In this document: one piece after another, positions 35,661 to 42,169 of the stretch | Layout of the letters: each line of letters begins with the position of its first letter | Numbering within the stretch: the first letter of the stretch is position 1 | Source of the DNA: Escherichia coli | Lineage (GTDB): Bacteria > Pseudomonadota > Gammaproteobacteria > Enterobacterales > Enterobacteriaceae | NCBI RefSeq assembly: GCF_003334305.1 | Contig: NZ_QOWS01000011.1 | DNA: 64,000 bases | Direction: 5' to 3' (one strand) | Program-made: the position numbers and the translations under genes | The notes under the pieces: generated by a model | The model's database searches: none | What the model was told of the DNA's origin: nothing | Seen by the model: the letters and a program-made list of their open reading frames with translations, nothing else

Positions 35661-39013
<3,353 letters not shown>

Positions 39014-39019
39014 GAGCGG

Positions 39020-39448
39020 TTAATCTCCCGTAAGTGGAACTAACAGCACATCGACCTCACTTGAGGCAATAACTCTTTTCGCCGAGCAGGATGCTCGCGA
39101 AAAGAAACTGTGATTGTGATTACCGCAAATCACCAAATCGAAATGATGTTTGTGACATACTTCCAGAATATGTTCGCTTAACTCACCGTAGGCAATAAAC
39201 GTCTTGTCAACGGGATACCCCGCATCCTGAATTAACTTATCAAGAAAGCTTTGCGTTTCTTCTTGCATCACGCTGCGTAAATCTTCAAGCATCGGCGCGG
39301 CTAATTGATTGTACATTTCCGGGTCGGAAGCGAGAGTAATTAAACTGATGTGTCCCTTTACTGGCCTGGCGATAGATACCGCTTTTGCCAGCAGTTGCTG
39401 ACTTTCCGGTGTAACCGCAACAGCGACAAGAATATTGCTATAGCTCAT
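39020..39448 (-). CDS. uspC: universal stress protein UspC (142 aa)
   Basis: UspA-family fold; convergent with otsA, stop codons 6 bp apart. Confidence 0.85.
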   Translation of the reverse strand: MSYSNILVAVAVTPESQQLLAKAVSIARPVKGHISLITLASDPEMYNQLAAPMLEDLRSVMQEETQSFLDKLIQDAGYPVDKTFIAYGELSEHILEVCHKHHFDLVICGNHNHSFFSRASCSAKRVIASSEVDVLLVPLTGD

Positions 39449-39950
39449 AACCTGTTCCTTATTCTGTGAACTTCAGGTGACATTAAAGCTTTACTCCTAA
39501 TGGAGAAACGACGCAATCCCAACTCGGTCAAACAGGTAAATATTAGTCTGATTATTAGTAAAGACAATTAATCAATCACTCCAGGTGATCATATAATTTC
39601 AAATGTAATTATAAGAAAATAGTGTACTGATTCTCCGCATTAAACAAGTGGTTAATATATGTAAAACATTTCATTAACATTAAGTTGATTGTTGCCTTTC
39701 TTTGTATTTAATTAGTTTGTTGTGCGGTAAGTGTCTGTTTAAAAATAGCTTATCTGGTATTGCATGAAAGTGATTATTTATAGCAGATGATTATTTACGG
39801 TGAGTTATTTTAACTGTGCGCAACATCCCATTTCGATTATTCCTGTTTCATTTTTGCTTGCTAGCGTAGCGAAAAACTTTTTAACAGATTGAAATACACC
39901 CAAAACAAAAGTATGACTTATACATTTATGTTAAGTAATTGAGTGTTTTG

Positions 39951-39966
39951 TGTGATCTGCATCACA
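39951..39966. promoter_or_regulatory. CRP binding site in the flhDC promoter region
   Basis: Perfect TGTGATCTGCATCACA about 270 bp upstream of the flhD ATG, consistent with a class I CRP site upstream of a long 5' UTR. Confidence 0.65.
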
Positions 39967-40227
39967 CATTATTGAAAATCGCAGCCCCCCTCCGTTGTAT
40001 GTGCGTGTAGTGACGAGTACAGTTGCGTCGATTTAGGAAAAATCTTAGATAAGTGTAAAGACCCATTTCTATTTGTAAGGACATATTAAACCAAAAAGGT
40101 GGTTCTGCTTATTGCAGCTTATCGCAACTATTCTAATGCTAATTATTTTTTACCGGGGCTTCCCGGCGACATCACGGGGTGCGGTGAAACCGCATAAAAA
40201 TAAAGTTGGTTATTCTGGGTGGGAATA

Positions 40228-40578
40228 ATGCATACCTCCGAGTTGCTGAAACACATTTATGACATCAACTTGTCATATTTACTACTTGCACAGCGTTTGA
40301 TTGTTCAGGACAAAGCGTCCGCTATGTTTCGTCTCGGCATAAATGAAGAAATGGCGACAACGTTAGCGGCACTGACTCTTCCGCAAATGGTTAAGCTGGC
40401 AGAAACCAATCAACTGGTTTGTCACTTCCGTTTTGACAGCCACCAGACGATTACTCAGTTGACGCAAGATTCCCGCGTTGACGATCTCCAGCAAATTCAT
40501 ACCGGCATCATGCTCTCAACACGCTTGCTGAATGATGTTAATCAGCCTGAAGAAGCGCTGCGCAAGAAAAGGGCCTGA
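40228..40578 (+). CDS. flhD: flagellar master regulator FlhD (116 aa from ATG at 40228; longest ORF starts 40219)
   Basis: Translation [37 protein letters not shown]... Confidence 0.9.
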
Positions 40579-40580
40579 TC

Positions 40581-41159
40581 ATGAGTGAAAAAAGCATTGT
40601 TCAGGAAGCGCGGGATATTCAGCTGGCAATGGAATTGATCACCCTGGGCGCTCGTTTGCAGATGCTGGAAAGCGAAACACAGTTAAGTCGCGGACGCCTG
40701 ATAAAACTTTATAAAGAACTGCGCGGAAGCCCACCGCCGAAAGGCATGCTGCCATTCTCAACCGACTGGTTTATGACCTGGGAACAAAACGTTCATGCTT
40801 CGATGTTCTGTAATGCATGGCAGTTTTTACTGAAAACCGGTTTGTGTAATGGCGTCGATGCGGTGATCAAAGCCTACCGTTTATACCTTGAACAGTGCCC
40901 ACAAGCAGAAGAAGGACCACTGCTGGCATTAACCCGTGCCTGGACATTGGTGCGGTTTGTTGAAAGTGGATTACTGCAACTTTCCAGCTGCAACTGCTGC
41001 GGCGGCAATTTTATTACCCACGCTCACCAGCCTGTTGGCAGCTTTGCCTGCAGCTTATGTCAACCGCCATCCCGGGCAGTAAAAAGACGTAAACTTTCCC
41101 AGAATCCTGCCGATATTATCCCACAACTGCTGGATGAACAGAGAGTACAGGCTGTTTAA
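40581..41159 (+). CDS. flhC: flagellar master regulator FlhC (192 aa)
   Basis: Zn-binding cysteines (…CNCCGGNF…, …CSLCQPP…) in ORF translation. Confidence 0.9.
41090..41116 (+). promoter_or_regulatory. sigma28 promoter inside the 3' end of flhC (motAB-cheAW promoter; MotR origin)
   Basis: TAAACTTT-N11-GCCGATAT, about 170 nt upstream of the motA start and within flhC codons. Confidence 0.7.
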
Positions 41160-41218
41160 CTGATACGGTGAGGCGCAACATTCCAGCAGCGGTAACGACG
41201 TACCGCTGCTTTTTTTTG
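41124..41218 (+). ncRNA. motR: candidate MotR sRNA (motA 5' UTR-derived, sigma28-dependent)
   Basis: Predicted TSS just downstream of the sigma28 -10 at 41109-41116; 3' end at the strong terminator 41187-41218; exact 5' end is inferred. Confidence 0.4.
41187..41218 (+). terminator. rho-independent terminator between flhC and motA
   Basis: GCAGCGGTA-ACGACG-TACCGCTGC followed by T8. Confidence 0.8.
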
Positions 41219-41285
41219 CCCCAATCGCGCGTTAACGCCTGACGACTGAACATCCTGTCATGGTCAACAGTGGAAGGATGATGTC

Positions 41286-42169
41286 GTGCTTATCTTATTA
41301 GGTTACCTGGTTGTTCTCGGTACAGTTTTCGGCGGTTATTTGATGACCGGTGGAAGCCTTGGAGCACTCTATCAACCCGCTGAACTGGTGATTATTGCCG
41401 GTGCAGGGATTGGGTCGTTTATCGTCGGCAATAATGGCAAAGCGATTAAAGGCACGCTGAAGGCGCTGCCGTTGCTGTTTCGTCGCTCCAAATACACCAA
41501 AGCAATGTATATGGATCTGCTGGCTCTGCTTTATCGGTTGATGGCGAAATCGCGGCAGATGGGGATGTTTTCGCTGGAACGTGATATTGAAAATCCCCGT
41601 GAGAGCGAGATCTTCGCCAGCTACCCACGCATCCTCGCGGATAGCGTCATGCTTGATTTTATCGTCGATTATCTGCGTCTGATTATCAGCGGTCATATGA
41701 ACACCTTCGAAATCGAAGCCCTGATGGATGAAGAGATTGAGACGCACGAAAGCGAGGCAGAAGTCCCGGCGAACAGTCTGGCGCTGGTCGGGGACTCACT
41801 TCCGGCGTTTGGTATTGTCGCGGCTGTAATGGGGGTCGTTCACGCGTTAGGTTCAGCCGATCGTCCTGCCGCCGAGCTGGGTGCGCTTATCGCACATGCG
41901 ATGGTGGGGACTTTCCTCGGCATTTTATTGGCTTACGGATTTATTTCCCCATTAGCGAGTGTTTTACGTCAGAAAAGCGCCGAAACCAGCAAAATGATGC
42001 AGTGCGTCAAAGTCACTCTGCTTTCTAATCTGAACGGTTACGCACCGCCTATCGCCGTTGAGTTTGGTCGCAAAACGCTCTATTCCAGCGAACGTCCGTC
42101 GTTTATTGAACTGGAAGAGCATGTGCGTGCGGTGAAAAATCCGCAACAACAGACGACAACCGAGGAAGC

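Follow-up and report, generated by a model that had tools for sequence, protein, structure and literature searches.

How does transcription end between two convergent genes that leave almost no DNA between their stop codons? This question is raised by otsA and uspC in a 64-kb stretch of Escherichia coli chromosomal DNA, referred to here as the window. The otsBA genes make the osmoprotectant trehalose; otsA encodes trehalose-6-phosphate synthase and uspC encodes universal stress protein C. The otsA coding sequence lies on the plus strand (37589..39013, stop codon TAG at 39011-39013), and uspC lies on the minus strand (39020..39448; ORF 39448..39020, stop codon TAA at 39022-39020, which appears as TTA at 39020-39022 on the plus strand). 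Read directly, positions 39009-39022 of the plus strand are gcg TAG gagcgg TTA, so that a spacer of only 6 bp, GAGCGG (39014..39019), lies between both stop codons. Genes at the locus are arranged in the order araH, otsB and otsA on the plus strand, uspC on the minus strand, and flhD, flhC and motA on the plus strand. Thus, otsA and uspC are adjacent genes that face each other on opposite strands, which is the gene arrangement of a convergent excludon.

The identity of both genes is supported by the ORF list, by RefSeq annotation carried over from a strain of 100% identity, and by NCBIfam equivalogs. OtsA matched NF007513 over positions 1-474 of 474 with 1045.6 bits (cut-off 759), and UspC matched NF007512 over positions 1-142 of 142 with 282.7 bits (cut-off 167). 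Since both matches are full length, both stop codons are the canonical protein ends. Strain MG1655 has the identical 6-bp gap between uspC (1979753..1980181, plus strand) and otsA (1980188..1981612, minus strand); based on the ORF list and the MG1655 annotation, an MG1655 coordinate equals 2019201 minus the window coordinate. Sequence, RefSeq annotation and MG1655 all give the same layout, confirming the preliminary description of convergent otsA and uspC stop codons 6 bp apart at 39011-39022. A 1.3-kb segment over the junction shows 100% identity with several complete genomes, and 5420 of 5426 E. coli genomes contain it. In 5411 of the 5420 matching genomes, at least 80% of the segment is covered in one piece (collinear). 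At the upstream end of otsA, the otsB stop (37614) and the otsA start (37589) overlap by 26 nt, as they do in MG1655. In the mechanical ORF list both genes begin further upstream than annotated, otsA with a GTG at 37580 and otsB with an ATG at 36757.

The usual solution for facing genes in E. coli is a bidirectional intrinsic terminator in a convergent spacer of 30-75 bp. Such a terminator would occupy the same place, between two facing stop codons. However, the otsA/uspC junction differs in having 6 bp only, without a GC-rich stem and without U or A tracts; a GC-rich stem-loop followed by a U tract after the stop codon was not found there. A consensus promoter/terminator scan returned zero terminator-like sites on either strand between 37400 and 40400 (otsB to flhD), and an Rfam scan of 36000-42000 returned zero matches at E<=1. 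A relaxed scan, which accepted hairpins of -7 kcal/mol or better with at least 4 U in 8, identified only weak candidates, located inside the opposite ORF. A weak interrupted stem with the core GGAG..CUCC does lie over both stop codons (38997..39039, listed on the plus strand; -13.9 kcal/mol on the plus strand and -9.6 kcal/mol on the minus strand), but with z of approximately -0.4 to -1.8 it is not significant and was rejected as a terminator. In no Escherichia species is the fold of the 72 nt around the junction more stable than that of shuffled sequence (z of -0.4 to -1.9), and each species has a different predicted structure, ruling out a conserved junction hairpin in Escherichia.

A comparison with relatives indicates how the junction may have reached this state. 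The search for UspC in genome contigs yielded only Escherichia and one Citrobacter locus, and the other genera were reached through protein homologues and the contigs that encode them. The Enterobacteriaceae share the tail-to-tail arrangement of uspC and otsA, with flhDC and otsB on either side and a gap of 5-31 bp in most genera. The gap is 6 bp in E. coli and four other Escherichia lineages, 6 bp in E. fergusonii, 5 bp in E. albertii, 15 bp in Enterobacter cloacae, 16 bp in Citrobacter sp., 17 bp in both Salmonella enterica and C. rodentium, 19 bp in Lelliottia, 31 bp in Kosakonia, 48 bp in C. freundii and 296 bp in Buttiauxella. Within Escherichia the length of the spacer is held, but its bases vary (CCGCTC, CCGCGC, CAGCAC, TCACAA, CCGCAA and TCCTGC). 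Strong GC hairpins (z of -2 to -5) lie over or adjoin the uspC stop codon in Enterobacter, Lelliottia, Kosakonia and C. freundii. In Enterobacter cloacae the hairpin CTCGGGGGCT-cataa-AGCCCCCGAG spans the uspC stop codon, in Kosakonia the hairpin is followed by UUUGUCGUU, and in C. freundii the hairpin has a perfect stem of 15 bp. In all four the hairpin is partly built from the last codons of uspC. Salmonella and C. rodentium retain hairpin remnants of 5-8 bp only, and Escherichia has essentially none. Judged from these sequences, Escherichia appears to represent the most eroded stage in a series of junction hairpins, having lost the hairpin. The preliminary description had stated that there is no room for an intergenic terminator between the two genes. 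This holds in E. coli, where the gap is 6 bp and the scans found no terminator. It does not hold as a necessity; since the hairpin of the relatives is partly encoded in the coding end of uspC, "no room" describes the actual state of E. coli and is not a logical requirement.

A junction of this kind is not rare. Among 31 convergent pairs of coding sequences annotated in four arbitrarily chosen 50-kb samples of MG1655, eight (26%) are separated by no more than 6 bp or overlap: yadE-panD (3 bp), amiD-ybjS (-4 bp), ybjD-ybjX (-4 bp), ycaM-ycaN (0 bp), ypdC-fryA (2 bp), yfeH-ypeB (-4 bp), yiaC-bisC (-32 bp) and ysaE-hokA (-24 bp). Approximately half of the remaining pairs have 29-75 bp, which leaves space for a single terminator to serve both genes, and the gaps of the rest are larger (140-278 bp). 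The published list of ExcludonFinder also contains seven of the eight tight pairs. A tight convergent gap almost automatically implies transcript overlap. The layout of otsA and uspC, a junction of the E. coli core genome, is ordinary for E. coli; the overlap is what tight convergent pairs generally show and is not peculiar to these stress genes. Moreover, the junction is already annotated across E. coli and the overlap is already catalogued, making it a known feature.

Published transcript data are available for the locus. The pair uspC-otsA is in Table 1 of ExcludonFinder (NAR 2025, PMC12288877) as one of 165 convergent excludons of MG1655. Membership of the MG1655 excludome required RNA-seq transcript boundaries to overlap in 50% or more of 58 data sets, and the transcript overlap of uspC and otsA is thus documented in published data. 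The supplementary data of SMRT-Cappable-seq do not mention otsA/uspC. Adams et al. 2021 (eLife, PMC7815308) provide curated Term-seq 3' ends from cells in LB at OD 0.4, LB at OD 2.0 and M63. None of these curated ends falls within 1978-1981 kb of MG1655, and hence none falls in the gap. A precise Term-seq end within the 6 bp would have spoken against the preliminary description; its absence from the three conditions is a weak negative, as expression may be low.

The same study mapped Rho termination regions by DirectRNA-seq with and without bicyclomycin in windows of 800 nt, so positions are coarse. One peak, labelled "antisense otsA", is at MG1655 1980810 on the uspC strand (plus in MG1655, minus in the window; supplementary file 2 of PMC7815308). 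Without bicyclomycin, 86/16 reads were counted upstream/downstream of the peak; under bicyclomycin the counts were 141/101, giving a Rho score of 3.85 (p of 1.8e-6). Coordinate conversion places the peak at 38391 of the window, approximately 630 nt beyond the uspC stop codon and antisense within otsA. More read-through under bicyclomycin was found on the uspC strand only, and the Rho-region table of PMC7815308 has no entry here for the otsA-sense strand. The missing entry is uninformative and not contrary, since otsBA is poorly expressed in the exponential LB culture that was used.

Antisense reads point to read-through in both directions. In the total RNA-seq data of Huang et al. 2020 (mBio, PMC7373196, Table S1c), sense/antisense RPM are 25.2/8.06 for uspC (yecG), 126.6/7.48 for otsA and 93.7/1.93 for otsB. 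Per kb, these counts correspond to an antisense density in uspC of approximately 21% of the otsA sense density, and an antisense density in otsA of approximately 9% of the uspC sense density. These densities are consistent with partial read-through both ways. The preliminary description had concluded that transcripts must end inside the opposing coding sequence, with antisense overlap. The excludon listing, the Rho region within otsA and the antisense reads in both genes support this reading; given the hairpins of the relatives, "must" is slightly too strong.

Based on these results, it is likely that the junction is without a terminator, that transcription reads through from both sides, and that Rho terminates it inside the opposite gene, leaving complementary 3' tails. 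Neither otsA nor uspC would end in an intrinsic terminator. RNA polymerase that passes the end of otsA would produce RNA antisense to uspC, and polymerase that passes the end of uspC would produce RNA antisense to otsA. Rho can load past the stop codons because the RNA is untranslated there, presumably on C-rich, G-poor stretches. Termination would then be diffuse, a few hundred nt into the opposite gene, as is seen on the uspC strand and as would be expected on the otsA strand. Exonucleases would probably trim the RNAs back to stem-loops, namely the hairpins H1 for otsBA and H2 for uspC described below. The result would be complementary 3' untranslated tails of the otsA and uspC mRNAs, which is the catalogued convergent "excludon" arrangement.

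The RNA past each stop codon has features that suit this sequence of events. Past uspC, H2 (UUCCGCG-CUU-CGCGGAA; 38952..38968, minus strand, -11.3 kcal/mol) lies inside otsA, 52-68 nt beyond the uspC stop codon, and is followed by CUAUCUGCUUU. Its stability is only in the 6% tail of the folds in the window and the curated Term-seq data contain no 3' end at H2, which may be a weak candidate terminator or 3' stabiliser of the uspC mRNA. Further along the uspC read-through RNA, a rut-like stretch with more C than G (38482..38719, minus strand; C/G of 1.4-1.5, composition only) precedes the published Rho peak. Past otsA, H1 is a 13-bp hairpin inside the uspC codons for FFSRASCSAKR (39074..39105, plus strand, -18.6 kcal/mol), 61-92 nt beyond the otsA stop codon. 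By stability, H1 ranks in the top 0.2% among the 36-nt segments of the 64-kb window; it is followed by AACUGUGA, with no U tract. Downstream of H1, the otsA read-through RNA also has a rut-like stretch with more C than G (39114..39291, plus strand; C/G of 1.3-1.75, composition only), which may serve as a Rho loading region for the otsA strand. Thus, by composition, untranslated C-rich and G-poor RNA is found upstream of the termination zone on the uspC strand and of the presumed one on the otsA strand. Dar & Sorek 2018 (PMC6061677) described Rho-dependent transcripts that end just 3' of stable stem-loops lacking U residues, with a rut site immediately downstream. By analogy, H1 followed by the stretch at 39114-39291 would fit this architecture of Rho-dependent 3' ends. 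The locus therefore shares with Rho termination of untranslated or antisense RNA (PMC7815308, PMC6061677) the bicyclomycin-sensitive region antisense to otsA on the uspC strand, the stretches with more C than G downstream of both stop codons, and a stable U-less stem-loop followed by a C-rich stretch. It differs in that the event on the otsA strand is one that we infer.

H1 is a candidate 3'-protective stem-loop of the otsBA mRNA, although its role as a 3' stabiliser is speculative. In 13 orthologues no compensatory changes were found in H1, and the consensus fold is weak (-2.96 kcal/mol, with a penalising covariation term of +0.52). In E. albertii, Salmonella and Enterobacter, base changes disrupt pairs of H1 without compensation. 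H1 is thus unsupported as a selected RNA structure, and its palindrome may just reflect conserved codons (FFSR / SAKR). Among the species compared, a small and phylogenetically related sample, a strong junction hairpin and H1 are mostly mutually exclusive, with the exception of Lelliottia.

The same hairpins could instead be embedded weak intrinsic terminators that stop the polymerase directly, with H2 and its tail acting on uspC, H1 acting on otsBA, and Rho serving as back-up only. Transcripts would then end 70-95 nt beyond each stop codon, with a fixed overlap of approximately 155 nt. TransTermHP predicts overlapping terminators for 146 of the 165 E. coli convergent excludons (ExcludonFinder, PMC12288877), the tail that follows H2 in the relaxed scan is partly U-rich, and the high stability of H1 would also suit a terminator. 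However, H1 and H2 both fail the consensus terminator scan, H1 is without a U tract, and H2 is of modest stability relative to the window. In addition, there is no Term-seq 3' end at the matching MG1655 positions (approximately 19802xx or 19800xx). It is therefore rather unlikely that embedded terminators, and not Rho, set the ends of these transcripts.

It has also been described by the Liu laboratory that bidirectional terminators between E. coli convergent pairs, which control hundreds of genes, arise from collisions that require a stem-loop for their positioning. At otsA/uspC, head-on polymerases from otsBA and uspC, placed by nascent stem-loops, could set the ends near the junction without Rho, and the weak stem over the junction might position them. 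That stem, however, is neither significant nor conserved in Escherichia, and the mechanism works best for highly expressed pairs, whereas uspC is weakly expressed (25 RPM). Moreover, read-through on the uspC strand is sensitive to bicyclomycin, whereas collision terminators are described as Rho-independent. Collision is accordingly a highly improbable cause of the ends at this junction.

If transcripts of otsA and uspC overlap, is the overlap itself used? The pair shares with the convergent excludon (PMC12288877) the convergent genes, the very short intergenic distance and the overlapping transcripts, and is itself listed. However, the class is defined by mutually exclusive expression, brought about by interference or RNase III, and the counts from rnc mutants show no clear sign of it for uspC/otsA. 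The antisense/sense ratio of uspC is 0.32 in wild type, 0.33 in rnc-14 and 0.29 in rnc-38, and the ratio of otsA is 0.059, 0.064 and 0.17, respectively (from the counts of PMC7373196). In p19-captured dsRNA the gene-level counts of uspC are unremarkable, and no cluster is named at the otsA/uspC junction. Given the unchanged uspC ratio in two rnc mutants and the lack of a named p19 cluster, these data give no clear sign of regulation driven by RNase III.

A functional excludon would require that the overlap was selected, such that strong transcription of otsBA (RpoS, osmotic stress) lowers uspC, and vice versa, by transcriptional interference or cleavage of dsRNA. In addition to the catalogue entry, the very short tail-to-tail gap is conserved in Escherichia, Salmonella, Citrobacter, Enterobacter, Lelliottia and Kosakonia. 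Both genes also act in osmotic stress, with UspC reported to scaffold KdpD/KdpE under salt stress. Yet a quarter of the convergent pairs sampled have gaps as small or overlap, so tightness alone is no sign of selection, and the strong junction hairpin kept in several relatives would limit the overlap. The indifference of the uspC ratio to RNase III also argues against this role, as does p19-captured dsRNA, which is far more enriched at 5' than at 3' overlaps. Selection of the overlap for regulation is therefore very unlikely, and the overlap is better explained as the product of Rho-limited read-through.

The surroundings of the junction bear on how far such read-through might extend. On the plus strand the scan found no terminator-like site from otsA to flhD, so that otsBA transcripts that fail to terminate could extend as far as the flhDC control region. 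The uspC-flhD spacer (39449-40227, approximately 780 bp) contains no insertion sequence in this strain; MG1655 has IS1H between uspC and flhD, and the corresponding spacer of E. fergusonii carries a DDE transposase. A functional coupling of otsBA and UspC/Kdp through the overlap is conceivable. In its most developed form, this coupling would make the overlap a timing switch of the osmoadaptive response: at first UspC would aid the K+ uptake that KdpD/KdpE drive, and later strong RpoS-dependent transcription of otsBA would run antisense through uspC and damp it while trehalose takes its place. The effect could extend to flhDC, coupling osmotic stress to motility. There is only a slim chance that the overlap works in this way.

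Two further features are found upstream of the junction. Within otsA, on the minus strand at 37857-37884, is the FliA (sigma-28) site "(otsA)" of Fitzgerald et al. 2014, with an exact match to the motif TGAAATTGCACCAGATCGAGCCGATAAT in antisense orientation; the promoter scan flags this site as well. A second Rho region, "antisense otsB", was mapped at MG1655 1981787 (plus strand; window approximately 37414) with a Rho score of 3.46 (PMC7815308). It is approximately 440 nt downstream of the FliA site and could end the antisense transcript from that site. Between araH and otsB, at 36685-36712 on the plus strand, a terminator-like 11-bp GC-rich hairpin, ACAGCCAGCCGCCACAACGGTTGGCTGT, follows araH and has a poor U tract, TCTTCATT.

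Finally, the otsA/uspC junction has little importance beyond bookkeeping, and would gain more only if the overlap couples trehalose synthesis, UspC/Kdp signalling or flhDC expression. Nonetheless, it would serve as a clean example of genes that have no space for a terminator and rely on Rho acting within the neighbouring gene, and of a junction hairpin of related genera that appears to have eroded in Escherichia.
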